A stretch of 64,000 nucleotides of DNA from Nitrospirales bacterium (GCA_963555755.3 OY820905.2:1600001-1664000), one strand, 5' to 3'; shown: positions 6,839 through 62,710, counted from the stretch's first letter. A program made the numbers and translations. The notes: generated by a model from the letters alone, not told the origin.

Positions 6839-6839
6839 G

Positions 6840-16624: not shown

Positions 16625-18424
16625 ATGGTGATGTTTGATCACAGAGAGGAAGGTGTCGTCACGTCACGAGTGATGCACATGAGAGAAAAACTGGCAGCTG
16701 TAGGATGCCTAATTCGCAAGAGGAGCGGGGTGTGTTCATCCTTTTTTTCCTGGAATACCTTCTGCCTCATTGTGATTGGATTGTCGGTTCTGATCTTAAG
16801 TACGAAAGGGCTAACGAATAGTGGAACCTTTTCGTTACAAGGGGATATGCCCCGATACATAATGAATGGGGTCTTCTTTCATGATTCGATCCAAGATTTT
16901 CCTTTCTCCGATCCCGTCCAATATGTGAAGGAATATTATGTTAGATATCCTGCTCTGAGTCTTGGCCATCATCCCCTTCTTCCTAGTCTTGCCGAGGTGC
17001 CGTTCTTTTTCCTATTTGGGATTTCAGTGTTCTCCGCCAAGGCCACCACGTTGGCCTTTGTGTTTCTTGGGATATTTGCTTGGTTTGAATTAGTGAAGAC
17101 ACTCTACAATTCTCATATTGCCTTCTTATCATCATTATTATTCCTGACCTCACCCATGATTGTGAAATTTTCCAGGGTCATGATGGCAGAAATCCCTGCT
17201 CTAGCCCTTATTATCGTGGCGACTTATTGGTTTTTTCGATACTGCAAGAACGAGCGGCCAAACGAGGCCTTTGGGTATGTGTTGAGTTTTGTGCTCGCCT
17301 GCTATGCGAAGCAAATGGTGATCTTCATGTTCCCAATTTTCTTTGTGTATCTGGGTGTGACTAAGGGAATACGGTTCCTCATGAAACAACAGACGATCAT
17401 GTCTTGTTTGGCCATCATCATTCTGTTAATACCCCTCGCCGTCATGACGTGGACACTTTCCCCAACCAATGTTTCGATGGTAACACAAAATATTGTGAAA
17501 CCTCTGGCGCCTCAGGCCGAGGAAGTCGAGAAGGGAAAAGAAGGAATTTTTCAGTCGGTGGGTTCCTACATCCATTGGAAACTTATCTCTACTGAATGGC
17601 TTTTTTACCCTACGGTACTGTGGAAGACGCAGGTCTCAGTCGTTCCCTTAGTATTGAGCGTGGGCGCGGTCGTGATGATGATCTGGCGGCGAGAAAAAAG
17701 GTCCTTGTATTTTTTCCTGTGGATTATAGCCATGTATGGAATGGTGACGTATATGGGAGTGCACATTCCTCGCTTAGGGATTTATTGGATTCCACCAGTC
17801 TGTCTTTTTGCGGCCTTAAGTCTAGAGGCTGTCAATTCCCGTGTGTGGCGGGTCGTGGTGGCGCTGTTACTGATTGGTTCAGTGGGATATCAGTTTGGGG
17901 TGGGGTATGCCTCTGAACCTGATTATGCCAAAGGATATGAGGAAGCGGCTTCCTATGTGGTGAATCATTCAAAGGGTGCGAGTGTGTTATATAGTGCAAA
18001 GGTGGATACCGGATACTTTATTTTCTTTGTGAGGAAATTTGACCCTGAAGGTCGTCTGGTCGTTCTTCGAGCCGATAAGGTACTGAGCACATCGCGTCTG
18101 GATCGAATAGTAGAGGAAAAAATTTCAACTCCAGGCGAACTGTATGATGTGCTTCAAGATTATGGAACCTGTTATATAGTGTTGGAAGAAGGGCACTATA
18201 CGTCACCAGCCCTTAATTTGTTGGCTGAAGAAGTTCAAAGCGAACAGTTTATTCGTAAACATACCATTTCGATGGATTCGAATAATCGACGGTTGCAGGG
18301 TGTGAATCTCGGAATTTTTGAATATCGAGAGTGTGGTCCTCCAAATAAAAATGCGCTGGTCAATTTCAATATCCCTCTCGCCAATCTGTCCATTCGTCTG
18401 AAATTTTCAGACGTCATTGACTAA
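16625..18424 (+). CDS. GT-C fold glycosyltransferase (ArnT/PMT, GT39/83-like)
   Basis: Multi-TM protein; GD..RY, HHPLLP, VMMAEIP, YAKQ and a periplasmic C-terminal domain. Exact start uncertain. Confidence 0.85.
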   Translation: MVMFDHREEGVVTSRVMHMREKLAAVGCLIRKRSGVCSSFFSWNTFCLIVIGLSVLILSTKGLTNSGTFSLQGDMPRYIMNGVFFHDSIQDFPFSDPVQYVKEYYVRYPALSLGHHPLLPSLAEVPFFFLFGISVFSAKATTLAFVFLGIFAWFELVKTLYNSHIAFLSSLLFLTSPMIVKFSRVMMAEIPALALIIVATYWFFRYCKNERPNEAFGYVLSFVLACYAKQMVIFMFPIFFVYLGVTKGIRFLMKQQTIMSCLAIIILLIPLAVMTWTLSPTNVSMVTQNIVKPLAPQAEEVEKGKEGIFQSVGSYIHWKLISTEWLFYPTVLWKTQVSVVPLVLSVGAVVMMIWRREKRSLYFFLWIIAMYGMVTYMGVHIPRLGIYWIPPVCLFAALSLEAVNSRVWRVVVALLLIGSVGYQFGVGYASEPDYAKGYEEAASYVVNHSKGASVLYSAKVDTGYFIFFVRKFDPEGRLVVLRADKVLSTSRLDRIVEEKISTPGELYDVLQDYGTCYIVLEEGHYTSPALNLLAEEVQSEQFIRKHTISMDSNNRRLQGVNLGIFEYRECGPPNKNALVNFNIPLANLSIRLKFSDVID

Positions 18425-18503
18425 ATCACGTTTAATCTTCATATTTCCCGAAAACATTCCACCGATACCCATTGAGCTCCCTTGGCCATGTCCACCCGGC
18501 TTA

Positions 18504-18662
18504 AGGGTTCGCGTAAGAATAACTTCCCCTGTTTGGGTGCTGAGACACCTGGCTGGCAAGGCGCGAGGACTGCGCATACTCCTCGTATGGAAAGGACGAG
18601 CAACGCCGCCAAACTGGATGGATCGACGCCCAAACAGGGGAAGTTATTCTTGCGCGAGCCCT
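18504..18662 (+). mobile_element. MITE family A, copy 2
   Basis: Matches 14792-14950. Confidence 0.9.
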
Positions 18663-18721
18663 AAGGGCTGCAATGCGGTTTTTTGCCCCTTCAGAATTGA
18701 TGACGGTAAGAAGTTCAAAAA

Positions 18722-20281
18722 TTGTCTTCCTCCATTCCATCACAGAGTCATGACAGCATCGAGAGGGTGAGTCCCAAGGAGAGGGTCGTCATCATTGGAG
18801 GTGGTCCTGCTGGGTTGACCGCAGCCTATCAGTTGTCACAGGGAAATATCCCCTGTGTGGTCTTAGAGAAAGATCACACCGTAGGGGGAATATCCCGAAC
18901 GGTGAACTATAAAGGATTTTTATTTGATATTGGAGGACATCGGTTTTTTACCAAGGTACAGGCTGTAGAAGACATTTGGCATGAGATTCTTTCCGATCAA
19001 GATTTTCGTGTGTGTGCTCGACTTTCTCGCATTTATTACAACCGAAAATTTCTCCCCTACCCCTTAGATCCCATCTACACACTGCGACAGCTAGGAATTG
19101 TGAATAGTCTTGGCATACTGGGAAGTTATCTCCACTCCCAATGCTTTCCGGAATTACCAGAGGACAATTTTGAACGGTGGGTGTCTAACCGTTTTGGCAA
19201 GCGGTTGTACAAGACTTTTTTTGAAGCCTATACGAAGAAGGTTTGGGGAATCCCTCCCAATCAGATTTCCTCGGAATGGGCCGAGCAACGGATCAAAGAT
19301 TTGTCAATTCCGACTCTGCTGAAAAATGCCATTTTCAAGGTGGGTTCCAAAGACGGGTCGGTGATCAAAACATTGATTCATCAATTTCACTATCCGAGGA
19401 AGGGGCCAGGCATGATGTGGGAAGCGGCGGCCCACCTTGTCGCGAAAAAAGGGGGCCGGGTTCGATTGGGCGCCAGTGTAGAAAAAATATATTGGTCGAA
19501 GGGTCGAGTCGATGCCCTGGACATTTCGATAAATGGCCGCCTGGAAACCATCGGTACGTGGCAAGTGATTAGCAGTATGCCACTTCGAGAACTTCTGCAA
19601 AAATTTGAGCCACCTGTTCCACCGGAATATCTTGAAGCTGCGGAACGGCTTCGCTATCGAGACTTTTTGACCGTAGCTCTGATCATCAATCGACGGGATG
19701 TGTTCCCGGACAATTGGATTTATATTCATGATCCTGACGTGAAGGTAGGACGAATCCAGAATTTTAAAAATTGGAGTGCAGATATGGTTCCGGACCACAA
19801 TAAAACCTGCTTGGGATTGGAGTATTTTTGTTTCGAAGGGGACGGGCTGTGGTCCGCCGAGGATGCCGATCTTCTTGAGCTTGGGAAACGGGAACTCGAA
19901 ATGATCGGGTTGGCCAACAGCTCGGAAGTAGAAGACGGCACGGTCGTGCGAATGCCAAAAGCCTATCCGGTGTATGATCAGTCGTATCGTGAGGCCTTAG
20001 GGACAATCCGTCAATTTCTGGTTACCTTGAACAACCTACAAGTAGTTGGGCGGAATGGAATGCACAAGTATAACAATCAAGATCATTCCATGCTGACAGC
20101 TCTGCTAGCTGTTAAAAATATTCAGGGCGCCCAGCATGATCTGTGGAGCGTCAATGTGGAGGAATCGTATCACGAAGAGACGCGGGACGACTATTTGGAG
20201 GATGAGGATTTTTCGGCTTTGAGTGCCACGCAACCAAAGGTGCCGGTATCGACAGAAAGAAAACCCCCTTTATCCCCTTAA
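18722..20281 (+). CDS. NAD(P)/FAD-dependent oxidoreductase (UDP-galactopyranose mutase / protoporphyrinogen oxidase-like, glycan-cluster type)
   Basis: GGGPAGLTAA, FDIGGHRFFTK, GRIQNFKNWS, PKAYPVY, GRNGMHKYNNQDHSM. Confidence 0.88.
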   Translation: MSSSIPSQSHDSIERVSPKERVVIIGGGPAGLTAAYQLSQGNIPCVVLEKDHTVGGISRTVNYKGFLFDIGGHRFFTKVQAVEDIWHEILSDQDFRVCARLSRIYYNRKFLPYPLDPIYTLRQLGIVNSLGILGSYLHSQCFPELPEDNFERWVSNRFGKRLYKTFFEAYTKKVWGIPPNQISSEWAEQRIKDLSIPTLLKNAIFKVGSKDGSVIKTLIHQFHYPRKGPGMMWEAAAHLVAKKGGRVRLGASVEKIYWSKGRVDALDISINGRLETIGTWQVISSMPLRELLQKFEPPVPPEYLEAAERLRYRDFLTVALIINRRDVFPDNWIYIHDPDVKVGRIQNFKNWSADMVPDHNKTCLGLEYFCFEGDGLWSAEDADLLELGKRELEMIGLANSSEVEDGTVVRMPKAYPVYDQSYREALGTIRQFLVTLNNLQVVGRNGMHKYNNQDHSMLTALLAVKNIQGAQHDLWSVNVEESYHEETRDDYLEDEDFSALSATQPKVPVSTERKPPLSP

Positions 20282-20442: not shown

Positions 20443-21513
20443 ATGAGCCATTCAATGAGTGATCCAGTCCTCATATCCATTATTATCCCCACCTACAATG
20501 GTGGCCGGCATCTTGATTCCTGCCTGTCCGCTATTCGCCGGTGCCTGTATGTGCCCCATGAAATCATCGTGGTCGACAATGGTTCTGTTGACGATACCCG
20601 TCAGATTGCTGGTCGGTATAGTGTGGTCATTGTTGACTGTCCTGGACCTTCTGGACCAGGGGCGGCACGCAATGAGGGAGCAAAATTTGCCCAGGGAAAA
20701 ATTTTGTTGTTTGTTGACACGGATGTCATGATTCACCCTGATGTGCTCCATCGTGTTTTGAACATATTCAAGACCCAACCGGAATTGGCAGCGGTGTTTG
20801 GTTCCTATGATACGCGCCCGGCTGCTCAAAACTTTATTTCCCAATACAAGAATTTATTGAACCATTTTGTTCATCAACATGCTCAAAACGAGGCGAGTAC
20901 GTTCTGGGGAGCCTGTGGAGCCATCCGATCAGATGTGTTTCACAAAATTGGTGGTTTTGACACCCACTGTAACAAGCCGGCAATCGAGGATATTGAGATG
21001 GGATACCGTTTGCGTCGAGCAGGGTATCGCATTGTGTTGGACAAACACATGCAGGGGCAACACTTGAAACGGTGGAGTTTTTCCTCCTTGATTCACACGG
21101 ATATTTTCTGTCGAGCCATTCCGTGGACTAAACTGGTATTGGAAAGTCGAACTCAGGTGAATGACCTGAACCTTCACCGGTCGCAAAGAGCCAGCGCCGG
21201 GTTGGTTGGTATGGCCACGATCGGGGCGCCACTTACCATGATTGAACCCCTTGTCTCATTGGCGGTGTTATCGTGTCTCATGGGTGTGTTCCTCTTGAAT
21301 CGAGAGTTATTTAGATTTTTCTTTCGTGAAAGAGGAATGCAGTTTGCCATGTCCTCTTTTCCAATTCACCTGTTGTATTTCTTGTACAGTGGGACCGTCT
21401 TTTCCTCCTACTGGGCCAGTCATACTCTTGTTCGTAGGTCTGTATCTTTTCTGCAATGGTTGGAAAAAGGGAAATTATTTTTCTTTCGGCCTAGGGAATC
21501 GACTGATCCTTAG
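20443..21513 (+). CDS. Glycosyltransferase family 2 with C-terminal TM segments
   Basis: SIIIPTYN, VVDNGSVD, GAARNEG, FVDTD, IEDIEMGYRL. Confidence 0.92.
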   Translation: MSHSMSDPVLISIIIPTYNGGRHLDSCLSAIRRCLYVPHEIIVVDNGSVDDTRQIAGRYSVVIVDCPGPSGPGAARNEGAKFAQGKILLFVDTDVMIHPDVLHRVLNIFKTQPELAAVFGSYDTRPAAQNFISQYKNLLNHFVHQHAQNEASTFWGACGAIRSDVFHKIGGFDTHCNKPAIEDIEMGYRLRRAGYRIVLDKHMQGQHLKRWSFSSLIHTDIFCRAIPWTKLVLESRTQVNDLNLHRSQRASAGLVGMATIGAPLTMIEPLVSLAVLSCLMGVFLLNRELFRFFFRERGMQFAMSSFPIHLLYFLYSGTVFSSYWASHTLVRRSVSFLQWLEKGKLFFFRPRESTDP

Positions 21514-21623
21514 GGTTCACGCCTAAGGGTTACATCAGGATCACCTTCCTCAAGACCTTTTGTGCAAGGTTGCTGCTCCTAAAAGTTATCAGTAGCCAAA
21601 CACAATTTCCCCATTCGTTTGCT

Positions 21624-21950
21624 GTCAATTTTCCCAACACACTGTCGGTTAATTAGCACTATTATTCCATCCCTTCGACTGTTCCCCCTTTGCTTAAGGG
21701 TTTGCGCAAAAATAACTTCCCCTGTTTAGACGTCGATTCATCCCGTCAGGCGGCGTTGCTCGTCCTTTCCATACGAGGAGTATGTGCAGTCCTCGCGCCT
21801 TGCCAGACAGGCGTCTCAGCACCCAAACATGGAAAGTTATTCTTGCGCGAACCCTAAGGGCTAAAGTCCCACTTCTTCTCATGACGAACGTGCATTTCAT
21901 TGAGTCTGGTTGTGACAGGCTGTCACTGATATTCCTGGCATGAGGCTTGC
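21624..21950 (+). promoter_or_regulatory. sigma54 promoter cassette F (upstream box 21624; TGGCATGAGGCTTGC 21936-21950), interrupted by a MITE
   Basis: Shares CTGTCAATTT..CAAC and CCCTTCGACTGTTC with cassettes at 29.5 and 63 kb. Confidence 0.7.
21697..21855 (-). mobile_element. MITE family A, copy 3 (inverted)
   Basis: Reverse complement of copies 1 and 2. Confidence 0.9.
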
Positions 21951-22070: not shown

Positions 22071-23162
22071 ATGATTGGTCAAAAGCAGAGTTGGTTAAGG
22101 ACTCATCGAATGTTAGCTGGGCTGTTGGCTGTGGGGGTACTTGTGTCGTTGGGTGCAACCGTTGGAGGAATTCCTCTTTCTGAAACCATTTTCGGAATTG
22201 ATGGAGTACATCAGGTCGATGGTCAAAATAATTCCCCAGTTCAGGTCGAACTACCCAAACCCTCTTGGCACCTGAATACATATGATGAGAACAAAGCCAA
22301 ACTCATTGTCCTGCCCAGCAATCCAAATATACGGCGAGTCGAAGTGACCCAAGCTGATACGACAGCCAGATGGCACATTCAATTAAGCCACAAACCTATT
22401 ATTGTGGAGGGGCAGGAGTGGTACTCCCTGCGTTTCCGAGCCCGAGCGGATGATGTGCGATCAATGGGGGCGGCCGTCAGTCAAGCACATGGTCCATGGG
22501 AAGTTCTTGGTCTGTATCGTTCAGTTCCCCTGATGAGGCAGTGGCAAGATTATAAATGGGAATTTCTTGCGACAGAGGATGATATCAATGCTCAGATCAC
22601 TTTTGATTTGGGTGGGTGGAAAGTCCCGGTTGAAGTCACAGCGGTTCGGCTCCTGAAACTCTCCAATGGAACGCTAAGGTGGAAGCTACAATTTCGAGAG
22701 GGAAGTGAAGCTGGGTTGCTGGGAATCCCAGAATTACCTCTTGGCACTCGAGTGGCTATTACCAAATCGCTCAACAACAACCCCAAACATATTCAATTGG
22801 TTCAACAAGGGGTAAACCTCCAGGTGAATGAACGATACCGACTACGATTTCACGCACGTGCTGACACACCACGAGACATGTATTTGGCGGTAAACCAGGC
22901 CCAGTATCCTTGGGAGGGCTTGGGTTTGAATCAAAAGGTTTCGCTCACCTCTGAATGGCAGCTCTTCGATTTGGAATTTGTCGCGACGAGCACAGATGAG
23001 AACGCAAGACTTATTTTTGAGCTAGGCGGACACAATATTCCCGTGGATATCAACGCCGTGTTGTTGCAGAGAAATTCCGAGATGGTGATACACAGTGGGG
23101 ATTCCTCAGCCCCTTCCTTGGGCAGAGCTACAGACACCCTGGTTGCGGTGGAGCCAACCTAA
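22071..23162 (+). CDS. Membrane-anchored or secreted protein with two tandem CBM4/9-like carbohydrate-binding domains
   Basis: Duplicated pattern W/H.IQL.....Y.LRF.ARAD..R...AV.QA..PWE.LGL...V.L...WQ....EF.AT.....A...F.LGG. Confidence 0.8.
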   Translation: MIGQKQSWLRTHRMLAGLLAVGVLVSLGATVGGIPLSETIFGIDGVHQVDGQNNSPVQVELPKPSWHLNTYDENKAKLIVLPSNPNIRRVEVTQADTTARWHIQLSHKPIIVEGQEWYSLRFRARADDVRSMGAAVSQAHGPWEVLGLYRSVPLMRQWQDYKWEFLATEDDINAQITFDLGGWKVPVEVTAVRLLKLSNGTLRWKLQFREGSEAGLLGIPELPLGTRVAITKSLNNNPKHIQLVQQGVNLQVNERYRLRFHARADTPRDMYLAVNQAQYPWEGLGLNQKVSLTSEWQLFDLEFVATSTDENARLIFELGGHNIPVDINAVLLQRNSEMVIHSGDSSAPSLGRATDTLVAVEPT

Positions 23163-28300: not shown

Positions 28301-28525
28301 GAAGGGTATTCCTTACCTGATAAGCCTGTAATGAAAATAAGCGTTCGAAAAAAACTAACATAACCGGTATCAAGAAACGTTTGCTCGCTCATGTCCAATT
28401 GCATATTCATCAACGCTTCGATGAGCACTTACTTCTATTCGGAGAATTGAGTGGTTTTCTAAAAAACGACGTAGCGTTTTGGTGAAAACCACGGTTGATC
28501 TGATGCCTCCTGAAAAAAACTGGTT

Positions 28526-28692: not shown

Positions 28693-28763
28693 ATAGTGTG
28701 CGAGGTTCTTCTTCTGTTGTGGACGTTCAGTATGTCTCTTTAGACTTCCTTCTCGGCACCTGA

Positions 28764-52574: not shown

Positions 52575-52780
52575 CCTGTCAACTTCTCGACGCTTTGTCA
52601 AAACCCTCCACGAAAAAGAAACCAATCCCACGGGTTGAATGGGGTTAGCCTTCTTCCAACCCAAGCGTTAAACAGGTCGTATTTGGTGTTCTTCACCACT
52701 GCCCTGAGAGAAAGTCCGTGGCATATACTTTGCACTAAATTCAACGAGACTCTCTCTCTGAATCCGTAGGGTCTGGATAA
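52575..52780 (+). promoter_or_regulatory. sigma54 promoter cassette B (box GTCAACTTCTCGAC; TGGCATATACTTTGC 52719-52733)
   Basis: Homologous to cassettes A and C, with a deletion of about 10 bp between box and promoter. Confidence 0.85.
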
Positions 52781-52899: not shown

Positions 52900-54183
52900 A
52901 TGAAGATAGCCCTCCTGTCATTTGAATATCCTGAAGAAACCGGGTTCGGCGGGATCGGTACCTATACCTGGTACCAGGCTCGCGCCTTAGTCAAGCTGGG
53001 GCACGAAGTGCATGTGTTGGCTGGGGCCACCGAGCCAACCGCACTTCGGATGGAAGCACATGATGGGGTTTTTGTGCACCGATATCGGAGCCATGGCTTC
53101 TTTCATCATTTTCCGACACTGCTGAATACGAGGAAATTGCTGAATAAAAACAAATTGGGGTGGACCAGTAATCGTGCAGAAAATGCCCTCAATATGTATC
53201 AGGCCTGGAAGGTGTTAGACCGTGAGCATCATTTTGATGTTGTGGAAATGCCGGAATGCGGGGCCGACGGTGCACTGATTAATCACATCACCTCGGCACG
53301 TACGATTATGAAGTTTCACTCACCGTCGCGCCTGATCATGCCACATTATGACGTGACGGCAACCGACATCGCGCTCTGTTCCTGGTTAGAGAAAATCGGG
53401 ATGTGGGGAGCCCAGGCATTTTCTTCTTGTTCGAAATTCCTTGCCGATGAAGCGCACAAGAAACTTGGGATTCGAGGTCCGATTCAGGTTATTCCCAATG
53501 GGATCGACCTGCAGTTATTCGACACGTCCGCGCGTGTGAATATTAGAAAGAAGTTCGGATTGTCCCCCACTCGGCTAATTATCTTTTTCTCAGGTCGAAT
53601 GGAACCTCGTAAGGGAATTCATCTGTGTAAGGATATTGCCACCTCAATTTTGGAACGATATGAGGTGGACTTTGTGTTTGCCGGACAGGACTTATTCAAT
53701 TACATGTCGGACACATTGCTTCCCTACCTCAAGGGGAGAACGTTGAAAGGGGCCGTGCATTACCTGGGAAAGCTTAACCTCACTGATGTTCGTTCCTTTC
53801 TCACTCAAGCTGATATTTTTCTCCTTCCAAGTCTTTGGGAGAACTGTCCTTATTCATGTCTTGAAGCCATGGCGTCTGGATGTGCCATTGTATGCTCGAA
53901 TCAGGGAGGCCTGCCTGAATTGATTCAGGACGGGCAGAATGGACTCCTCACGCCCAACGAACATGCCCCCTCATATATCGCCAATCTTGAACGATTGATT
54001 GAAGACCAACCCCTTCGTGAACGTTTAGGGGTGGCGGCCAGAAACACGATCGAGGACCGGTACACGGATATACATATTGCCCGCCAGTCTTTGGCGTATT
54101 ACGCAAAGGGTGTATGTCAGGGAATGCCTACCGCGGGAGAGGCCATCGGGACAGATCGTTTAGGAGAAAAGTGTGCAGAATAA
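52900..54183 (+). CDS. Glycosyltransferase family 4
   Basis: EYP..GGIGTY, IPNGID, GRMEPRKG, PSLWENCPYSCLEAMASG. Confidence 0.93.
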   Translation: MKIALLSFEYPEETGFGGIGTYTWYQARALVKLGHEVHVLAGATEPTALRMEAHDGVFVHRYRSHGFFHHFPTLLNTRKLLNKNKLGWTSNRAENALNMYQAWKVLDREHHFDVVEMPECGADGALINHITSARTIMKFHSPSRLIMPHYDVTATDIALCSWLEKIGMWGAQAFSSCSKFLADEAHKKLGIRGPIQVIPNGIDLQLFDTSARVNIRKKFGLSPTRLIIFFSGRMEPRKGIHLCKDIATSILERYEVDFVFAGQDLFNYMSDTLLPYLKGRTLKGAVHYLGKLNLTDVRSFLTQADIFLLPSLWENCPYSCLEAMASGCAIVCSNQGGLPELIQDGQNGLLTPNEHAPSYIANLERLIEDQPLRERLGVAARNTIEDRYTDIHIARQSLAYYAKGVCQGMPTAGEAIGTDRLGEKCAE

Positions 54184-54242: not shown

Positions 54243-57200
54243 ATGGGCAGGCTGTTCATCGAAAAAGAAAATGTAATTCAGCTCGACAAAGAACAGTATG
54301 ACCTTTGGCGGAGCGATGACTTCTCTGGAAAGACTGTGTGCCATGCACCTTTTGTTTCCCTAGATGTTCGTGAATCTGGCGCGGTGCATGCATGCCCCTA
54401 TTCCGAGATGGATTTGGGCCACGTAGGTGGTCAGCCCCTTGAATCGATCTGGAATGGTCCAGGTTTTGGTGAAGTGCGTCACCGCTTTCGGGAATATCGT
54501 GTCAAGGTTGATGAATGTGGTGGTTGTGTCAATTCTTGGAAGGAGGGCGTACCAGGGAAAAGCCCGGCTCTCGTAGAGTTCGATAGCATAAAACCTGCTC
54601 GATGGGGATCTCCGTATGTTCCTCAAATTCTCAGACTCGATCTGCGCGCACCGCTTTCGGCAATGGATACCAAGACGGTGTTTCGATGGTTACCACGGCT
54701 CGCTCGGCTGGATTTGGGTATCTCCTGGCCTCTACCAACCGATTCACTTTTTCGGACACTCATAGATCGGGCGGCCACGCTTCCTGACGGCAAGCGTCCG
54801 AAGATCACATTACAGGTGTTCGAAAACATTCCAGAAGCCAATAACATTCCCCACGGGATTGCGGTCGTCAGACTCAACCTTGCCATGAATGATGAGGATC
54901 TTTCTTCTCATCAGGGTGAGGTATTGGAGGAGCTGGCCCGATCTCTTCAAGCTCGAGGTGCGGAGCTTGTCCTTGAGGTTTCCGTCCATCAGGGAAACTG
55001 GATTCATCTTCGATCCTGGCTCTTGCGCGCGCACACTCTCGGAATCACGCTTGTACCGTTGCTAGCTCCGACATCAGAGAACGCATCACTTGCCACCCTT
55101 GATGGTGATGCACTGGCTTGCCTCCACAGCATCTTTGAGCAGTGGCTGTCTGAACACCCACACGCCACCCAGCTAGGGTCAGCATCCCCAACAAGACATG
55201 CCATGCTTGATCAACTCCGACGGTGGCAGCATGAAGCTGCTGGGCGTCCTCCGCAGCGAACCGTTCTCTCCTTTCCTGGTCCTGACCATTCCATTGTTCA
55301 GGATGAAACAGCGTTGGAACCGTTTCTGGCCGGTTTACTCCGGATCTATTCTGACTTTTCCATCGAGCGTTGGCTGATGGGGCTCACTGAAAGTAAGGGA
55401 TTTGTCGCGAAGGCCCGGCGCCGGCGTTCGTTCCGTCTCGCGGCATGGTGGCTTGGCTGTGTGTTCGACCGTGCCGAGGTTCTTCCACTCCTAGGTCGGG
55501 TCTTTCGGACTCATGAGGAGGCTCGCCGCCTCATTGACAAAGATCGGAACGCTCTGGCTGGTACGATTTGGGAAAGTTGGTTCGATGGCTGGACGAGGCA
55601 GCTATACCTTAATTCCCTGCAGCCGCGGGGACGACGCTTTGATGTTGGCGCACCCCGGCGAGAAACTGCGGAAGAAACTGCTCAGATCACCGTGATCATG
55701 GCCTCCTACAATCACCAGGCCTTTATCGGGAAGGCAATCCGTAGTGTCCTGGCCCAGACACGAACCGACTTTCGTCTACTTATAGTCGACGATGCATCAG
55801 TGGATGAAACAGTTAAACAGGCTGAAAAAATCCAGGATCCTCGAATCCTCATTCGTCGAAACTCGAAAAACCTAAGACACGGCCCAAACTTGGCACGGGC
55901 ATTGGAGAACGTCGAAACAGAATATGTGGCCTTCATGGACGCCGATGACCTCTTCCATCCAAAACGTTTAGAACACTGTCTTTCCGCCTTGGAAGAAACT
56001 CCTCGAGGAGCTCTGGTCGCGACGGGCTTGGCTGTAGTCGACAAGGAAGGCCGGTTCTGCTCAACAGCCGACTCCTCCCCAGTCTTTGAGGGTTTGAAGA
56101 ATTATAATTGGTTGCGTTTCTATGAAGAGCAGGCCCGCCTGACCAAAACTCCTGCCGATTTTCTGGGAAACCTCTTGGAAGGGAATTCGCTAATTACGAC
56201 TTCAAATCTCGTGGCACGTACGGAGTTTCTCAGGCGCCACCAAAGTCAGTGGCAGCGTCTCGAGTTCTGCGTAGACTGGCAGCTTTTTTTGGCTGCGGCC
56301 TTAGAAAACAGATTGTGCTATGTGCCAGAAACCTTGTTGGGATACAGGCTCCACCCATCCAATTTTAAGTGGACCCACTGTTTCGATAAGGGGTCCAACT
56401 GGCACTACTACTTGGAGTACAACCAGGTTGTCGCAAGGACACTGGGTCATCTACTCCAAAGGTCCGACGGGTCGGATGCCAAGGGATTCACCACTGTTTT
56501 GAGTGCCCTGACTGACCACTTGAACTCAAACACGTCCATGGATTGGCCTGGGGTGGTATTAGGGTTCCTGTTGGAACGTTTGGGCTTGTCACCCCGTGAC
56601 CTAAAAAGCGATTCAGTGGCCGACCGTGTCCAAGCACTGATTCAAGCCCGAGACTTTCGTTTGCAGACAAGGTTTTGGCCCCCAGATTACGTGGACGATA
56701 TCGCGGAGCAGTACCGGATGCGAGGAGAAGCACCGTTCCTCCGTTCCCTACGGAACAAGTATGAAGGGCTTCAGAACAGTCATGACCGACTTCAAGGCGA
56801 GGTCACAGGACTGCTGTTTGATCGTGCCAATGCTAAAAAATGGTGGCGCAAGGCCGAGCAGGAGCGTGACCAGGCCCTGGCAATACAGCAAGACCTGCAG
56901 CACCAACTCGGAGGACTGCAGGGGGAGCACGACCAGGCCCTTACGAAACAACAGGGCTTGTCTTGCCAAATTGGGGAACTGCAAGGAGAGATCGAGAAGG
57001 TCCGTGCCTCATGGAAATGCGTGGAGAATGAGCGGGATCAAGCCATACATGACAAGGGCGAACTCTTTCAAGAAATTGGCCTGTCCAAGAAGAAACTCGA
57101 CTGTGTGCATACGCAGTTAGAAGAACGTACCACCGAACGCAATGCCTTATTACATTCCCTGGAATATCGAGGCGGGCAACTCTTGATCCAAGGGTTCCAT

Positions 57201-58637
57201 TGCCGTCCATTGATTCGAGGGGTTGAGTGGATGACCGTGAAGATTCAACGGCATCTGGCTTTCTTGGGCTTAACCCTCGCACGATGGTCATCAGGATGGC
57301 GTCAGGAGAGCTCTAGGGTGTTGGCGACAGTGTGTGCGGCCTTTCCTATTTATTCGCAGACTTTTGTGCATCAGGAACTTTCACAGTTAGCGAAACGTGG
57401 GTTTCAGATACGGCTGATCTATTCATCCCTGCAGTCCAGGGGAAATCTTCATCACCAATTCGACTCTCTCTGGAAACATAAAAGCCGTCTTTCAATATAT
57501 GACAAAATCCATGAACAAGATTTTGACCGATTTCGAAATCAGTTTCCTGAGAAGGTTGAACGACTCATTCATATGGTCGGTGATTCATCCGGTGTCACCC
57601 GAGAGAAATTAATTCGACATCCACATTTCTTGCAGGCCTTTTCGTTTACGCGAATGGCTGAGGTGTACCGTCCTCACTACTTGCATTCGTATTTCTTTTA
57701 TGACCGGTCCTTTATGGCTCTCGTGGCTGGCTATATACTCGATATTCCGCGAGGCATCAGTTGTTATGCCGATCATGTCCTGGATGACTACAAACTCAAG
57801 GTGGTGCCGCTGCACCTTGAATTGTGTGATACGGTGATTGCCACATCTGAACGCATCAAAGCTGAACTCCTTGCGATGGCCCCAAAGACCGATCCGACAC
57901 GTATTGTGGTGAAACCTAATGCCATTGATACGACATGGTTTCCCAGGATTGAATGCCGTGAACCACAAACTGATGAGCCATTCCGGCTCGTATGTGTAAA
58001 TCGAATCGAACCCAAGAAGGGGTTGCTCTATCTCGTCGAAGCTATCCACTCTCTCCGTCAGCGAGGACATCATGTCGAGTTGCATGTGATCGGCACGGCA
58101 GATACAGGGATTCAATCCAGCCAAGATTATAAACACAAGTTAGATGAATGCATCTCTGATTATAATTTGTGGGGTGTGGTTCATCTAGAGGGGCAACAAA
58201 ATCAGGAAGGTGTTCTTCGATTTCTCAACATGTCTCAGGTATTTATTGCCCCATTTATTGAAACAGACTACGGAGATAAAGATGGGATCCCCACAGCCCT
58301 GTTGGAAGCCATGGCCACCGGGTTGCCGGTCGTGGCTACCGATGCAGGTTCCATGGGGGAAGTGATCCAACATGATCGAGAAGGAGACGTCGTTCCACAA
58401 CGTGATAGTCAGGCCCTCGCCGATTCTATTGCACGACTTCTTACTGATCCACAGCGCAGGAAGAAATTGGGACAGGCAGCCGCGGATACTGTGCGGCAGC
58501 GTTTTGATGTGAGCGTATGCGAACACCGCTTTCATGATCGTGTTTTGTCGGTCATTGAATCCAGAGGTCCTAATGGAATGTCGCGGCAATCCCCTGGTTT
58601 CGATTTCCTGCCGAGGTGGATCTCTCGAGTGTCCTAG
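54243..58637 (+). CDS. Multidomain protein: SPASM/Twitch-like Fe-S domain + unknown region + GT2 + coiled coil + GT4
   Basis: CHAPF..G.V.AC...LG......IWNG...R..C..C; TVIMASYN..VDDAS.D..FMDADD; heptad-rich segment; RIEPKKG..DGIPTALLEAMATG. Confidence 0.85.
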   Translation: MGRLFIEKENVIQLDKEQYDLWRSDDFSGKTVCHAPFVSLDVRESGAVHACPYSEMDLGHVGGQPLESIWNGPGFGEVRHRFREYRVKVDECGGCVNSWKEGVPGKSPALVEFDSIKPARWGSPYVPQILRLDLRAPLSAMDTKTVFRWLPRLARLDLGISWPLPTDSLFRTLIDRAATLPDGKRPKITLQVFENIPEANNIPHGIAVVRLNLAMNDEDLSSHQGEVLEELARSLQARGAELVLEVSVHQGNWIHLRSWLLRAHTLGITLVPLLAPTSENASLATLDGDALACLHSIFEQWLSEHPHATQLGSASPTRHAMLDQLRRWQHEAAGRPPQRTVLSFPGPDHSIVQDETALEPFLAGLLRIYSDFSIERWLMGLTESKGFVAKARRRRSFRLAAWWLGCVFDRAEVLPLLGRVFRTHEEARRLIDKDRNALAGTIWESWFDGWTRQLYLNSLQPRGRRFDVGAPRRETAEETAQITVIMASYNHQAFIGKAIRSVLAQTRTDFRLLIVDDASVDETVKQAEKIQDPRILIRRNSKNLRHGPNLARALENVETEYVAFMDADDLFHPKRLEHCLSALEETPRGALVATGLAVVDKEGRFCSTADSSPVFEGLKNYNWLRFYEEQARLTKTPADFLGNLLEGNSLITTSNLVARTEFLRRHQSQWQRLEFCVDWQLFLAAALENRLCYVPETLLGYRLHPSNFKWTHCFDKGSNWHYYLEYNQVVARTLGHLLQRSDGSDAKGFTTVLSALTDHLNSNTSMDWPGVVLGFLLERLGLSPRDLKSDSVADRVQALIQARDFRLQTRFWPPDYVDDIAEQYRMRGEAPFLRSLRNKYEGLQNSHDRLQGEVTGLLFDRANAKKWWRKAEQERDQALAIQQDLQHQLGGLQGEHDQALTKQQGLSCQIGELQGEIEKVRASWKCVENERDQAIHDKGELFQEIGLSKKKLDCVHTQLEERTTERNALLHSLEYRGGQLLIQGFHCRPLIRGVEWMTVKIQRHLAFLGLTLARWSSGWRQESSRVLATVCAAFPIYSQTFVHQELSQLAKRGFQIRLIYSSLQSRGNLHHQFDSLWKHKSRLSIYDKIHEQDFDRFRNQFPEKVERLIHMVGDSSGVTREKLIRHPHFLQAFSFTRMAEVYRPHYLHSYFFYDRSFMALVAGYILDIPRGISCYADHVLDDYKLKVVPLHLELCDTVIATSERIKAELLAMAPKTDPTRIVVKPNAIDTTWFPRIECREPQTDEPFRLVCVNRIEPKKGLLYLVEAIHSLRQRGHHVELHVIGTADTGIQSSQDYKHKLDECISDYNLWGVVHLEGQQNQEGVLRFLNMSQVFIAPFIETDYGDKDGIPTALLEAMATGLPVVATDAGSMGEVIQHDREGDVVPQRDSQALADSIARLLTDPQRRKKLGQAAADTVRQRFDVSVCEHRFHDRVLSVIESRGPNGMSRQSPGFDFLPRWISRVS

Positions 58638-58639
58638 CC

Positions 58640-59461
58640 ATGATGCACGCCGTTACGGAAACCCTATCTCATCCTTCGAAGACATTCCAAGGACTCCAGA
58701 AACCTGCCCTTGAGTGTCGGAATGTTGTGAAGGAGTATTTTTTATATCAGCAACGAACCACCTCTCTTCGCGAGTGGGTCATTCGAACCCTGTTGCGTCA
58801 TCCAATCCCTGCCGGGCAGTCGTTTTTTACGCTCACGAATTTCAATATGACAGTGTCCAAGGGTGAAAGTGTGGCGCTCATTGGGGATAACGGGTCGGGA
58901 AAAAGTACGGCTTTGCGCCTCATGGCTGGCATCTATCAACCGACGAGCGGATCCATTCACACGTTTGGACGGGTTGGTGTTGTCATGGAACTGGGTGCAG
59001 GCTTTCATATGGAACTCACCGGGGCAGAAAACGTGGAAATTTATGCGGTCTTAATGGGGCTGACTCGAGACCAGTTCGCCTTTCGCTTTCAAGATATCAT
59101 CGAATTCTCGGAACTGAGGGATTACGTGAACATTCCGGTGAAATATTATTCCTCAGGCATGCAGGCTCGATTAGCGTTTTCAGTCGCCATCTGTATCACT
59201 CCAGAAATTTTATTATTGGACGAAGTCTTAGCGGTTGGAGATCAAGGTTTCAGAGAAAAGTGTCTGGATCGTTTGCGAACCTATCATTCAGAAGGTGGAA
59301 CGTTGGTCATCGCCTCCCACAGCTTTGAAATAATTAGGGAGTTATGTTCAAGGGCCGTGTGGCTGGAACAGGGCGTGATCCAAATGGATGGGGAGATTAA
59401 CGAGGTACTTGATGTCTATCAATCGGCAAGCAAGTCACGGATACTGGCCGGCAAAATATAG
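58640..59461 (+). CDS. wzt: Polysaccharide ABC transporter ATP-binding protein, without C-terminal carbohydrate-binding domain
   Basis: GDNGSGKST, YSSGMQARLAF, LLLDEVLAVGD, ASH. Confidence 0.93.
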   Translation: MMHAVTETLSHPSKTFQGLQKPALECRNVVKEYFLYQQRTTSLREWVIRTLLRHPIPAGQSFFTLTNFNMTVSKGESVALIGDNGSGKSTALRLMAGIYQPTSGSIHTFGRVGVVMELGAGFHMELTGAENVEIYAVLMGLTRDQFAFRFQDIIEFSELRDYVNIPVKYYSSGMQARLAFSVAICITPEILLLDEVLAVGDQGFREKCLDRLRTYHSEGGTLVIASHSFEIIRELCSRAVWLEQGVIQMDGEINEVLDVYQSASKSRILAGKI

Positions 59462-59539
59462 GAACAATCGAAAGGTTAAGGATGGTGTGAGACATTGGTG
59501 CAGGGGTTTGCCCCCCAAGATGTTGGAGTTGTATTCCCC

Positions 59540-60910
59540 ATGAACATTCTTCAAGTGATCCACTCGTTCCCTCCCCATAGTCTTGGAGGGTCAGAAATTT
59601 ATACCTACAACCTGTCACGAGAATTGGCGAAGTCTCACGAGATCATGGTTTTTCATGCCATCAACGATCCGAAGGCCGAAGAATATGACATAAAGGTTGG
59701 TTCATGCGATGGCTTCAAAGTTTCGACTATTAACAATACTTTTAAACAGTGCACGTCGTTTGAAACACATTATCGCAATGAGATGATTGCCAAAAAATTT
59801 GGTGAACTACTCGACGAAGTCACCCCCGATATCGTGCACATCGGGCATCTCATTGACCTTTCTGTCACGTTGGTGGACGAAGCAAAGAAGAGAAGCATCC
59901 CTGTCGTATTGACGTTGCATGATTTTTGGTTGTTCTGTCCACTCGGACGACTCCTCAAGGCCGATCTCACGTTGTGCCAGGGACCTCAAATGTCAAAATG
60001 TGCCAAGTGCCTAGCCCCTCAATTGTCTACGACCAAAGGGTTAAGACGTTTGTATCAAGGTATTCAAAAGGTTATTCCAAATTTTAATGAGAGAATAGGG
60101 ATTCGGAAGATTCTGAGTGTGTTGTATCGTCAATATGCCAAAGTCAAAGCTGCTCAAAATAACAATAACTCCGCTCATATTGAAAACAGAGCCTTGGAAA
60201 TCAAGCGAATTTGCTCCTTAGTTGATGTCTTTATTGCTCCGTCAAGGTTTTTGCTGGAGAAATTTGTCGAGTTCGGGATTCCGAAACAGAAACTGGTTTA
60301 TTGTGATTATGGGTTTGATACCTTGCCCTTTAAAGGTGTACCCAAAAAGCACTCGAGGAAAATCCGATTTGGGTATATTGGAACCCTTATTCCTTCCAAA
60401 GGTCTTCATGTTCTCATGGAAGCCTTTCATGCCATTCACGATGAAGATGTCGAGCTTCGTATTCATGGATATTACTCATCCTTCCATCTTGGCTTTGAAG
60501 ACTATCCCAATTCCCTTCGTGCCATGTCCTCAAAACATAATGTGTACTGGGGTGGGAAGTACGACAATACCGATGTGGCCAAATTATTGTCTGAGATCGA
60601 TGTCTTGGTGGTTCCCTCGATTTGGTATGAGAATTCGCCGTTAACGATTCATGAAGCGTTTTTGGCAGGAGTCCCTGTCATTACCTCAAATATCGGTGGT
60701 ATGGCAGAACTAGTGGAAGATGGAGTGAATGGTCTTCATTTTCAGATGGGGAGTGCAGGGGATCTGGCCAGGCAATTACAGCGAGTGATTGATGACCCTG
60801 GACTTCTCACCAAGCTAAGACCGAATGGATCATCGGTGACGTCAATTGAAAGCCATGCGCTGAAAATCGAAACAATCTATAGAGGAGTGAATTGCAGGGA
60901 AACCGTTTAG
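59540..60910 (+). CDS. Glycosyltransferase family 4
   Basis: FPP..GGSE.Y, TLHDFWLFCP, PSKG, PSIWYENSPLTIHEA. Confidence 0.93.
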   Translation: MNILQVIHSFPPHSLGGSEIYTYNLSRELAKSHEIMVFHAINDPKAEEYDIKVGSCDGFKVSTINNTFKQCTSFETHYRNEMIAKKFGELLDEVTPDIVHIGHLIDLSVTLVDEAKKRSIPVVLTLHDFWLFCPLGRLLKADLTLCQGPQMSKCAKCLAPQLSTTKGLRRLYQGIQKVIPNFNERIGIRKILSVLYRQYAKVKAAQNNNNSAHIENRALEIKRICSLVDVFIAPSRFLLEKFVEFGIPKQKLVYCDYGFDTLPFKGVPKKHSRKIRFGYIGTLIPSKGLHVLMEAFHAIHDEDVELRIHGYYSSFHLGFEDYPNSLRAMSSKHNVYWGGKYDNTDVAKLLSEIDVLVVPSIWYENSPLTIHEAFLAGVPVITSNIGGMAELVEDGVNGLHFQMGSAGDLARQLQRVIDDPGLLTKLRPNGSSVTSIESHALKIETIYRGVNCRETV

Positions 60911-60941
60911 TTTGAATCTTGCCATTAAAATGAACAAGCGG

Positions 60942-61736
60942 CTACGTACAGGCAGTTCTTGCCACAATTTTTTGCCCAGATAAACCACGTAAAGAGGCGG
61001 ACCGTGAGCTCAAGATAATCGTTTTGTTCGCGGACCAATAGCAGTTGGAGAGGAGGTTGGGGTTGGAGCCACTCTCGAACAGGGCGGTGCATATCTGGTA
61101 CTCGCCTGCGATTTGAAAAACATCCACTGGTTCCGCGAGAATCTTCACCGCCTGAGGAGCTTGATCTTCGCTGAACTCGATGTCAGACCTGAAGGGCACT
61201 GCATATTCCTCAAAGTTCGGAAGAAAATAGATCACGTCATCGGGACTGCGGATGCCGACGAAAAGATCAGCGACCATGGGTTCGCCCTTGTAATGGAAAT
61301 CCAAGTTCACTTCCAGTATGTCGCCGGGCTGCACCACTTTGCGGTTCACCCGAAGCTCGCTCCGCTGCAGTTGTTCCCTTGCCTGGGAATGGGGGTCATG
61401 GGTCCCGGTCGCCTTGAAACTATTTGGACCCTTCATGCGATCGAGGATAAAGTGCTGATCGTCATCACGATAGATGGGGCACCTTGTAGACTGGCACTCT
61501 GGCGGTAGGCGTTGCTCGCTCAGGGCTTGCCGGATCCTCTGCATAATCGGCCCATTCCAGATTTGCTCAAAGGATTCCTCGTTGACACTACCTACCACCG
61601 CACTTGAGAAGCAGCAGAAATTTACGCTGGCATCGGAAAGGATTACTGAGGTGCCCTGCCAGGGTACGTCACATAAGGATTGCCGCAGTTGCGTCGCTAT
61701 CCATAGAACTTGGTTTGGGTTCCCCGCAGCAGTCAT
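60942..61736 (-). CDS. Stand-alone SPASM/Twitch-like domain plus C-terminal beta-sandwich-like domain
   Basis: GGAG RBS; CDVPW...VNFCC...VGSVNEESFEQIWNG...IRQ...PECQSTRCP. No CxxxCxxC. Confidence 0.75.
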   Translation of the reverse strand: MTAAGNPNQVLWIATQLRQSLCDVPWQGTSVILSDASVNFCCFSSAVVGSVNEESFEQIWNGPIMQRIRQALSEQRLPPECQSTRCPIYRDDDQHFILDRMKGPNSFKATGTHDPHSQAREQLQRSELRVNRKVVQPGDILEVNLDFHYKGEPMVADLFVGIRSPDDVIYFLPNFEEYAVPFRSDIEFSEDQAPQAVKILAEPVDVFQIAGEYQICTALFESGSNPNLLSNCYWSANKTIILSSRSASLRGLSGQKIVARTACT

Positions 61737-61783
61737 AAAATCTCCCCCTCCGTAAGTGTTAAACCCTCGTACTTCTATCTAGG

Positions 61784-62710
61784 CTATTTGTGAGCGGTCT
61801 TATATTTTCCAGAGAAAATTGAGAGAATTCGTGGCGCCCATTTAGGATTCTCACATTTAGTACCGGAGTTTTGCACTGACCGCTCTTCCTGGAGCTCCGC
61901 CTCTGTAGGGGGGCCAGGTAACTCGATATTTAGTCCCAAAACCTCCGCTGCCTGGCGGGTCCGCTCGCGCTCACGATTGTATTCCGTACCGAATTTTCTG
62001 GTGCACTCTTCACGGTAATCGAAGATGCCACCAGTTTTCGTCTCGACCTGCCAGTCGAGCCAGTCCCCCTCGTGTAGGTGATAGTATCTGACGCCATCCA
62101 CTTTTAATGCCTTCGCCAAATACATCAGTGGCATCATGTCCTGTACGCTACTCTTGGTAATCACGAAGGAGAGGGTGATCTGGGTCCTATCACGCCGTGC
62201 CTCAAACCGGTCGACGTAGGTTTTAATGTTGCGGACGATGGGCCAGAAGTGCTTGCCGCGGATCCTCAAGAAGGTTTCAGGAGTGGCAGCATCTATGGAA
62301 AAGTTAATCGAAAGATAATTAGGGTAGTTCGCCAAGGCATCGAGATATTTCGGCGTACAGACTGAGCCGTTAGTGTTAAGGGACAGTCCTACCCCAGCCT
62401 CCGCACATCGGCTGACGATATCAAAGAACTCCGGGTCGATCATGAACTCGCTGATGCCATGAAACGCGAGCGCCTCGGATCTTGGGATCAACTCCAGCAA
62501 TTTTTTCCAGGTATCCCCTTCGTTCTTGGTCCTGGGAATCTGGTTGCCAACCCGATGATCGATGCAGTAGACGCACCGAAAGTTACAAATGTTTGATCTT
62601 GCGATCTGCAAGTTTGGAGGGATAGATTTGACGTTGGCAATGCCGTGGGCGAGCTCCCATTGCGCCTGATACCTATTCTTCTGATTAAGTTTGAGTTTGT
62701 GAACTGACAT
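61784..62710 (-). CDS. Radical SAM protein lacking a C-terminal SPASM domain
   Basis: GGAGG RBS; CNFRCVYC, HGISEF, LNTNGS, FSIDAATPETFLRIRG. Confidence 0.9.
   Translation of the reverse strand: MSVHKLKLNQKNRYQAQWELAHGIANVKSIPPNLQIARSNICNFRCVYCIDHRVGNQIPRTKNEGDTWKKLLELIPRSEALAFHGISEFMIDPEFFDIVSRCAEAGVGLSLNTNGSVCTPKYLDALANYPNYLSINFSIDAATPETFLRIRGKHFWPIVRNIKTYVDRFEARRDRTQITLSFVITKSSVQDMMPLMYLAKALKVDGVRYYHLHEGDWLDWQVETKTGGIFDYREECTRKFGTEYNRERERTRQAAEVLGLNIELPGPPTEAELQEERSVQNSGTKCENPKWAPRILSIFSGKYKTAHK

Follow-up and report, generated by a model that had tools for sequence, protein, structure and literature searches.

A strain-variable surface glycan island of a Nitrospirales bacterium with predicted ABC export, periplasmic tailoring and a FleQ-type promoter module

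The sequence studied here is a 64,000-nt stretch of a Nitrospirales bacterium (G000:C1:1600001-1664000; hereafter the window) from a genome of 4.62 Mb that is 99.4% complete, and the element in question is a 46-kb locus of surface glycan genes at positions 16,625 to 62,710. Judged by sequence comparison, this locus varies between strains and is pieced together from modules that are found apart from one another in other genomes and contigs; it is not one conserved system. We hold it to be slightly more probable than otherwise that the island builds an O-polysaccharide of the lipopolysaccharide (LPS), which would be exported by Wzm/Wzt and given side chains in the periplasm by glycosyltransferases (GTs) of the GT-C fold, with five to six operons under a FleQ-like activator. 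A WecA-like enzyme encoded 130 kb upstream would start the chain, and the GT2 and GT4 enzymes of the island would extend it. A 1464-aa fusion would act as a coiled-coil ruler protein whose N-terminal part, with a twitch domain and a radical-SAM-type fold, is presumably non-catalytic. Export would pass through the sole Wzm/Wzt pair, whose Wzt is seen to lack a carbohydrate-binding module (CBM), and would be linked to chain extension in the manner of Klebsiella O2a. Polyprenyl phosphate would be loaded with furanose or deoxy sugars by two DPM1-like GT2s, which a mutase and an epimerase would supply, and by the products of a HAD-UbiA/DprE1/DprE2 operon; the GT-Cs would transfer these lipid-borne sugars in the periplasm. 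In the GT-C–CBM–SGNH fusions, the CBM may hold the glycan and the SGNH domain may remove or move an ester at the same site. Finally, a FleQ-type box with a sigma54 module would place the operons, among them the two units that hold wzm and wzt, under the control of the flagellar regulator.

The island was compared with five congeners, 120 or 300 genomes of the order, 114 of the family and 400 others of the phylum. Left of about 16.4 kb the genes are common to congeners (73-89% in G055, G145 and G143). The segment at 16.5-21.6 kb matched G142 only among the five congeners, and that at 44.1-64.0 kb matched none of them (0/5, three of which are at least 90% complete); hence the island is regarded as strain-variable. 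Module A was found on one contig of G160, where a GT4 gene, a transmembrane (TM)-CBM-SGNH gene, wzm/wzt, an intact twitch radical SAM gene and a twitch-GT fusion gene stand together. Its GT4 (52900) occurs in G160 only among 300 order genomes, its CBM-SGNH unit in G160 and G142 among the same 300, and the twitch-GT fusion in G160 only among the 114. On L016, a metagenome contig of 38% GC, the GT4 and the full fusion are accompanied by a twitch radical SAM gene and by two TM-CBM-SGNH genes. Module B (mutase, GT2, twin GT-C, DPM1 and methyltransferase-DPM1) is clustered in G054, G079 and G095 (3/120 for both queries), which are of one genus and not independent, and its epimerase is present in two of these three loci. 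The first-pass annotation, made from the sequence alone, had proposed checking whether the modules are conserved together. Modules A and B do recur elsewhere, but separately, and the full composition of the island was found in none of the genomes searched. The first-pass annotation knew of no described system with such a set of parts; the strategy, however, is described in PMC11127046 and PMC11231755.

The genes for the exporter and the backbone are the following.
38644..39498, plus strand: Wzm, ABC transporter permease (ABC2_membrane in Pfam; galactan Wzm model below cut-off; 54% orthologue in G102)
58616..59461, plus strand: Wzt ATPase without a C-terminal CBM (281 aa; no Wzt_C match in Pfam)
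37572..38576, plus strand: GT2 with two C-terminal hydrophobic segments (Pfam, hydrophobicity)
41055..42113, plus strand: GT2 (Glyco_tranf_2_4 in Pfam)
52900..54183, plus strand: GT4, conserved marker of the backbone module (Pfam; orthologues in G160, 1/300, and in L016)
59495..60910, plus strand: GT4 (Pfam)
54243..58637, plus strand: fusion of twitch domain, cluster-less radical-SAM fold, GT2, coiled coil and GT4; candidate terminator-ruler-polymerase

The wzm and wzt genes lie 20 kb apart, and wzt is the sole match in the genome to the galactan-exporter Wzt model (E<=1e-30). Among the 38 open reading frames (ORFs) of the window scanned against Pfam (35 against NCBIfam), none matched the wzx, wzy or MBOAT families, in agreement with the first-pass annotation. 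A WecA-like gene (PF00953) and two PF04932 genes (Wzy_C/WaaL family) are located 130-170 kb upstream, at C1:1.446-1.475 Mb.

In the 1464-aa fusion, a twitch domain with four conserved Cys is followed by a barrel, a GT2, a heptad-rich linker and a GT4. The best fold matches of the barrel are radical SAM enzymes, at a middling Z of 9.2 (root mean square deviation 3.7, 181 aligned). The linker measured 104-239 aa across six sequences. The CxxxCxxC motif is missing from the N-terminus in all six family members inspected, and therefore the protein is not a conventional radical SAM enzyme. Its format resembles that of known ruler proteins, making it a candidate terminator-ruler-polymerase.

The GT-C enzymes and the genes that may supply their donors are listed below.
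16625..18424, plus strand: GT-C (PMT_2; PF13231, E=4.6e-9; 10 hydrophobic segments)
23631..26621, plus strand: GT-C–CBM4/9–SGNH fusion, copy 1 (Pfam, alignment)
29989..33006, plus strand: GT-C–CBM4/9–SGNH fusion, copy 2 (Pfam; structure model)
47473..49146, minus strand: GT-C (PMT_2; PF13231, E=3.5e-8)
26768..28300, minus strand: polytopic membrane protein, unconfirmed GT-C candidate (1058 relatives; conserved D68, E163 and R209)
42168..43880 and 44137..45852, plus strand: two tandem GT-C candidates, 92% identical (repeat, topology, profile comparison)
18722..20281, plus strand: FAD enzyme of the PRK07208 family, likely nucleoside diphosphate (NDP)-sugar pyranose-furanose mutase (NCBIfam above cut-off)
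20443..21513, plus strand: GT2 with a C-terminal hydrophobic segment (Pfam; 46-48% orthologues beside the mutase in G079, G054 and G095)
39638..40876, plus strand: DPM1-like GT2, likely polyprenyl-phosphate sugar synthase (NCBIfam; 69% orthologues in G079, G054 and G095)
50898..52457, plus strand: methyltransferase–DPM1-like GT2 fusion (Pfam, NCBIfam; 64-65% orthologues in 3/120 order genomes)
49590..50696, plus strand: NDP-sugar epimerase, CDP-tyvelose 2-epimerase-like (best PDB matches)

Up to seven GT-Cs had been claimed for the island. PMT_2 was above the Pfam cut-off in four of the seven candidates (16625, 23631, 29989 and 47473), which are also four of the seven PMT_2 matches in the whole genome. 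The other three have an acidic residue in loop 1, and 8-9 hydrophobic segments in the two of them scored (26768 and 42168); their profile comparison by hhalign was weak (E=0.005 for the twin pair 42168/44137 and E=0.16 for 26768). Two of 72 members of the 26768 family matched DUF2142 and none of the 72 matched PMT_2. The protein belongs to an unannotated polytopic family of more than 1000 members with conserved D, E and R and a C-terminal H-G-D-x5-R-H motif, and this family may be a GT-C family not yet described.

The FAD protein at 18722 has its best PDB matches among eukaryote-type UDP-galactopyranose mutases (E=2e-24), with the GGH loop and the NQDHS motif aligned. Three to four 16-nt tandem repeats are found at its stop codon (20279-20338). 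The orthologous proteins of G079, G054 and G095 exceed it by about 100 aa, and the hydrophobic C-terminal part seen in G079 could be a membrane domain that the island copy has lost. The two DPM1-like GT2s named in the first-pass annotation were recovered, with AglJ and dolichyl-phosphate hexose transferase as their best NCBIfam models, both below the cut-off. An operon of HAD-UbiA, DprE1-like and DprE2-like genes was seen 20 kb past the window, at C1:1683693-1687389 (L002:1193-4889). Its HAD-UbiA product matches PRK08238 above the cut-off, and the DprE1-like and DprE2-like products are below theirs; no GT-C or flippase ORF was seen directly behind the operon. Genes of the HAD-UbiA, DprE1 and DprE2 kinds make up a described route to polyprenyl-phospho-arabinofuranose (PMC11127046), and from its sequence the operon is a probable donor source for the island. 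As for a MATE-type flippase, the genome has a single PF13440 match, which we take to be MurJ, 1.4 Mb from the island.

The two GT-C–CBM–SGNH fusions are paralogues, 54% identical. In the model of copy 2 (predicted local distance difference test, pLDDT, 73; predicted template modelling score, pTM, 0.53), the membrane part matched the folds of STT3, ALG12 and ArnT, the middle part CBM4 and the end CE2-type SGNH esterases. A search through 7992 candidates gave 18 proteins, namely the query, 10 of full architecture, 1 truncated, 3 with the GT-C only and 3 with CBM-SGNH only, in which the CBM-SGNH unit stands behind a short membrane anchor or a GT2. The DE pair of loop 1 is invariant in all 11 aligned sequences. 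Of the 10 full-length homologues, 8 retain the His of block V and two have Arg in its place. The blocks of the SGNH domain follow the order S-G-N-H, block III carrying Asp and block V reading DxH; the block I Ser, the block V Asp/His and the SGNH fold of the superfamily are present. The full-length fusion was not found in the 120 order genomes. Among the 114 family genomes, G142 has it; in G126 the GT-C part is joined to another tail, and its gene is located inside a ubiA/dprE1...dprE2 cluster. The fusion genes of L015 and G142 are neighboured by GT2-type donor genes, and therefore the donor sugar is not fixed. Profile searches with the fusion alignment found one distant GT-C-only locus among 39 stretches of genome contigs, and 5 of 198 in metagenomes.

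Further SGNH and CBM proteins are encoded near the fusions.
22071..23162, plus strand: membrane-anchored protein with two CBM4/9 domains (PF02018, two stretches; one N-terminal hydrophobic segment)
46235..47374, plus strand: membrane-anchored SGNH protein, intact, order S-G-N-H (Pfam, motif order)

Pfam and inspection of the reading frames support the count of five SGNH domains, two of them in broken genes, and Pfam also that of four CBM4/9 domains. The assignment of these SGNHs to the AlgX/PatB type had to be given up. The AlgX family is defined by the circularly permuted order H-S-G-N with a block III Tyr (PMC9487903), whereas in the three intact domains and in the frameshifted gene at 33163 the Ser precedes the His and block III reads GND or PDDD. 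MBOAT (PF03062) had no match in the genome (the control matched 3/14), and the one AT3 gene, at C1:633513, is unlinked, 1 Mb from the island. The SGNH transferases described so far depend on a donor protein of the MBOAT or AT3 type (PMC12148441), and the fusion SGNH is therefore likelier an esterase than an acetyltransferase; the missing partner favours an esterase or a new donor route. The GT-C–CBM–SGNH protein, as a rare three-in-one enzyme, was added here to the first-pass annotation, as were a third broken gene (gmd), the terminator-ruler-polymerase format of the 1464-aa protein, the natural split of the radical SAM/SPASM enzyme, the box at enhancer distance with its copied promoter module, and the operon for donor synthesis that lies past the window. 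A literature search on GT-C with SGNH, twitch radical SAM proteins in polysaccharide clusters, Nitrospira Wzm and FleQ with O-antigen found no description of these fusions or of this regulation, with most subscription papers outside its scope; related loci may be shown in SI Fig. S11 of PMC11127046.

The sigma54 promoters of the island are as follows.
21623..21950, plus strand: sigma54 promoter 21936 with a degenerate enhancer-like site 21623, split by a 159-bp miniature inverted-repeat transposable element (MITE; 21697-21855)
28510..28693, plus strand: copy of the promoter module with sigma54 site 28678 and a degenerate enhancer
29560..29725, plus strand: promoter module with FleQ-type box 29560 and sigma54 site 29711
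37279..37446, plus strand: promoter with a perfect palindromic FleQ-type box 37279 and a degenerate sigma54 site 37432
52577..52733, plus strand: promoter module with FleQ-type box 52577 and sigma54 site 52719
62909..63077, minus strand: promoter module with a perfect FleQ-type box 63077 and sigma54 site 62923

The sigma54 motif TGGCAY-N5-TTGC occurs five times in the window, against 0.53 expected, and 38 times in the genome. Four of the sigma54 sites share about 190 bp of homologous upstream DNA; the upstream piece at 21623 scored 40 against the module, where the 95th percentile of random pieces is 28, which is weak support. The palindrome TGTCR-N6-YRACR lies 142-154 bp upstream of the sigma54 sites at 29711, 37432, 52719 and 62923, and of one at C1:1669017, shortly past the end of the window. 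When sequence from outside the window was used to train both matrices, a box at the module distance was found for 5 of 361 sigma54-like sites, and four of the five are in the window (0.6 expected). Among the 120 other genomes of the order, the pattern of box and sigma54 site was found once each in 14, and the reversed pattern in none. It stands before fliL-fliM in 10 of the 14, before a conserved hydrolase-like gene in 3 and in no clear context in 1. An activator gene at C1:4413292-4414749 heads the flagellar cluster; the best PDB match of its product is FleQ (E=5e-101), with a near-identical recognition helix. The protein retains the receiver Asp and lacks the FleQ residues that we take to be contacts of cyclic di-GMP. 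FleQ homologues have been noted in Nitrospira genomes (PMC5767232). The island box matches both the repeat yGTCA-N6-TGACr predicted for the FlrA/FleQ-like DVU2894 (PMC4641369) and the proposed FleQ consensus (PMC6120874). From these sequence features, the copied module is predicted to answer to the FleQ-like flagellar activator and to cover five or six operons. The wzm unit and the wzt unit each have their own box, which would explain how the split exporter genes are co-expressed. The first-pass annotation had placed the whole locus under shared sigma54 promoters; this stands for five to six units and not for all genes, as discussed below.

Similar promoters were seen elsewhere in the genome. 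At C1:1668868-1670879 (L001), a further FleQ-box/sigma54 promoter precedes two HD-like/DUF6817 genes, and the promoter and a gene are kept in G142. At C1:539350-541153, and at L049-L051 and L067-L071, a conserved gene, whose product has an alpha/beta-hydrolase-like C-terminus and is presumably PilZ/LuxD-like, is preceded by such a box and sigma54 site in several family members (three inspected); an EF-G-like gene lies divergent to it. The fifth box and sigma54 promoter of the genome is at C1:3060427-3061460, before a gene which we take to be TenA/PqqC-like and whose end is disrupted by mobile elements.

The right end of the island holds one more enzyme.
60942..62713, minus strand: split radical SAM enzyme, with the core at 61784-62713 (CxxxCxxC) and the SPASM subunit at 60942-61736 (Pfam, homologue lengths)

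The core has both the Radical_SAM domain and the CxxxCxxC motif. In a homologue search covering lengths of 169-541, 118 of the 119 homologues listed are shorter than 350 aa, and one protein (P0040) fuses both halves (74% and 55%). A frameshift between the two genes was rejected on these grounds, and by homologue length the pair is a naturally split enzyme. The radical SAM/SPASM pair and the SPASM-GT fusion reported earlier are both borne out by Pfam and homologue comparison. The split enzyme was found in none of the 400 other phylum genomes, and is therefore a late addition; a plasmid search with the core gave no match. The radical chemistry on sugar precursors that the first-pass annotation considered might be the work of this enzyme; the radical-SAM domain of the GT fusion lacks CxxxCxxC.

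Three genes of the island are broken, one of them cut by an insertion sequence (IS).
28794..29490, plus strand: gmd (GDP-mannose 4,6-dehydratase) pseudogene, with a frameshift near 28945 and the 3' part missing where the next promoter module begins
33163..34961, plus strand: membrane-anchored SGNH gene, frameshift near 34290
34995..35940, plus strand: IS630-family remnant (DDE_3; 98% repeat of the element at 5345-6467)
35917..36766, minus strand: membrane-anchored SGNH gene, frameshift near 36600, cut by the IS630 element

The gmd pseudogene is the sole gmd match in the genome (E<=1e-10). An assembly error as the source of the breaks was not supported, with no differing letters in the contigs of 3/3 public runs, which come from at most two samples (X1 and X3 are one sample, maybe the assembly source).

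Mobile and relic sequences are also seen around the island. IS630, IS30-like and IS1595-family elements lie to its left (5345-8100 and 12639-13682 of the window). The relic fragments at 63200-64000 comprise the start of an epimerase gene, parts of GT4 genes and a copy, 166 nt long and 89% identical, of the GT4 segment 60651-60816. The 159-bp MITE has terminal inverted repeats and occurs at 14792-14950, 18504-18662 and 21697-21855; the genome has 166 copies of at least 130 nt, and it is abundant in congeners too. A second envelope locus is located at C1:4290000-4341000 and contains GT-C genes from the PMT_2 scan of the genome; we assume that its other genes are exosortase-like, PrsK/PrsR-like, carbamoyltransferase-like and SGNH genes.

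Several observations weigh against an LPS O-polysaccharide built by the island as one pathway. The WecA-like and ligase-type genes are unlinked to it, and PF04932 does not separate a ligase from a polymerase. A coiled-coil terminator is usually paired with a CBM-bearing Wzt (PMC11231755); G160 has such a Wzt on the contig of its twitch-GT fusion, but the Wzt of this genome has no CBM. Three of the seven GT-Cs (26768, 42168 and 44137) are unconfirmed, with no match in Pfam or the PDB. The GtrA flippase (PF04138) had no match in this 99.4% complete genome, the island included (the control matched 8/14). Within 500 bp of each of the positions 16625, 18722, 28300, 49146, 49590 and 50898, no sigma54 site scores higher than 8 bits, and three genes (two SGNH and gmd) are broken. 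In G102 the orthologous wzm/wzt genes (54-56%) have no GT-C homologue within 100 kb. Module B adjoins a Wzx-family flippase, not Wzm/Wzt, in all three carriers (by Pfam scan on G079 and by evident similarity in G054 and G095), and therefore its acceptor need not be the Wzm/Wzt product. The earlier idea of an ABC-exported backbone diversified outside the membrane by interchangeable GT-C modules remains the best reading, and the modules are co-conserved, but it is qualified by the Wzx beside module B.

It is improbable, though not negligibly so, that the Wzm/Wzt glycan is not linked to LPS but is placed on surface proteins such as PEP-CTERM proteins or pili, or is capsule-like, with some of the GT-Cs acting as protein glycosyltransferases. 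The genome has about a dozen PEP-CTERM-like C-termini, the island is without a ligase or an initiating enzyme, and the top fold matches of the fusion model are the oligosaccharyltransferases STT3/AglB. These matches, however, are generic for GT-C, at 11-13% identity and alongside ALG12 and ArnT, and the best NCBIfam models are O-antigen galactan exporters, although below the cut-off. Loci which we take to be exosortase/exopolysaccharide (EPS)-like and flagellin-glycosylation-like stand separately elsewhere; flagellin itself was judged an unlikely target, given that the latter, presumably glycosylation-like, locus adjoins the flagellin gene. An equally small share of belief goes to the island as a collecting site for horizontally gained envelope genes. 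Its modules would then serve different acceptors (O-chain, core or lipid A, EPS), a number of them would be in decay, and they would not form a single pathway. The three broken genes, IS630, the MITEs, the 92% twins and the relic fragments at 63.2-64.0 kb would fit such a site, as would the segments at 44-64 kb (0/5 congeners) and 16-21 kb (only G142) and modules that occur separately elsewhere. Most ORFs are nevertheless intact with their catalytic motifs, and the copies of the promoter module are 73-75% alike with intact boxes. That one module stands before genes of different origin, including the wzm and wzt units, suggests selection for joint expression.

The regulator is a separate matter, and here an alternative is rather unlikely but more credible than the two above: the box may be read by another sigma54 activator, such as a PrsR-like regulator of an EPS locus or a FleR-like protein, and not by the FleQ-like protein. 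Eleven GAFTGA activators are encoded in the genome, ten besides the FleQ-like one. About 150 bp past the gene that we take to be PrsR-like, on its downstream side, there is a perfect palindrome, but no sigma54 site is visible behind it. The flagellar promoters of this genome are without the strict box, its own fliL promoter having imperfect boxes only, whereas the motif precedes fliL-fliM in the 10 relatives and the recognition helix of the flagellar-cluster activator matches FleQ. FleQ consensus searches were unreliable in P. fluorescens (PMC6120874), yet the motif equals the FlrA/FleQ-type repeat (PMC4641369).

Should the LPS O-polysaccharide under a FleQ-like activator be correct, the copied cassette shows openly how envelope genes of foreign origin are brought into one regulon, and the surface glycan is predicted to change with motility, which is easily testable. 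The GT-C–CBM–SGNH fusion would couple glycosylation with ester chemistry in a genome without an MBOAT match, and its mechanism would define how many orphan membrane-anchored SGNH proteins of environmental glycan loci work. Beside wzm/wzt, twitch radical-SAM proteins are met repeatedly, as is a cluster-less derivative, one of them at the distal end of a putative coiled-coil ruler; they offer a concrete target for the open question of the role of such enzymes in polysaccharide clusters. A bolder proposal, which we regard as doubtful, is that the fusions are a new class of single-chain periplasmic glycan editors, which attach a sugar carried by a lipid and acylate or deacylate that same site without an MBOAT/AT3 partner, that copying of the FleQ-box/sigma54 cassette captured foreign tailoring modules into the flagellar regulon and gave swimming cells their own O-glycan coat, and that an Fe-S pseudo-radical-SAM protein caps the chain as terminator.

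The overall strategy is known, and the island is a rich example of it rather than a new pathway. The three-component system for side-chain galactosylation of Klebsiella O2a is named GmlABC. In Klebsiella pneumoniae O2afg/O2aeh, as in the island, a CBM-less Wzm/Wzt is combined with a DPM1/GtrB-like synthase and a GT-C that acts after export (PMC11231755, PMC11127046). The island differs by its four to seven GT-Cs and up to three donor routes, where the Klebsiella system has one, by the lack of a GtrA/SMR flippase, by GT-Cs fused to CBM and SGNH, and by sigma54/enhancer promoters. The pentofuranose system of Citrobacter youngae O1/O2 consists of the HAD-PPPRS protein ORF15, a MATE flippase and a GT136 GT-C with a CBM (PMC11127046). 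The island shares with it and with mycobacterial DPA/Aft/Emb the HAD-UbiA with DprE1/DprE2-like genes and the GT-C with an appended CBM, but its donor operon is unlinked, no MATE flippase is in the island, and an SGNH domain follows the CBM.

The AT3-SGNH (OatA, OafA) and MBOAT-SGNH (PatAB, AlgI/AlgJ/AlgX) systems likewise tether to a polytopic membrane domain an SGNH domain that lies in the periplasm and has the Ser and the His, and AlgX shares the DxH of block V and the joining of SGNH with a CBM (PMC9487903, PMC12148441). In the fusion, by contrast, the membrane domain has the GT-C fold, the order is S-G-N-H and block III has Asp; no MBOAT is present, and the AT3 gene is 1 Mb off. The 1464-aa fusion resembles WbbB of K. 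pneumoniae O12 and ORF6-O7 in its N-terminal module, variable coiled coil, C-terminal GT and position beside wzt (PMC11231755). Its distal part, however, is a twitch domain, a cluster-less radical-SAM fold and a GT2, not a Kdo transferase or a methyltransferase-kinase; one GT only is C-terminal to the coil, and the Wzt is without a CBM. With the FleQ/FlrA regulon (P. aeruginosa FleQ at pel/psl; D. vulgaris DVU2894) the island shares a GTCA-N6-TGAC-type box and the link of a flagellar activator to surface polysaccharide genes; here the boxes are at enhancer distance before sigma54 promoters, which suggests activation, and the targets look like O-polysaccharide tailoring genes. Compared in this way, the island would fall outside the three-component family for want of the dedicated flippase, and outside the AlgX/MBOAT families by block order and partner, yet it would appear to work like the three-component systems.

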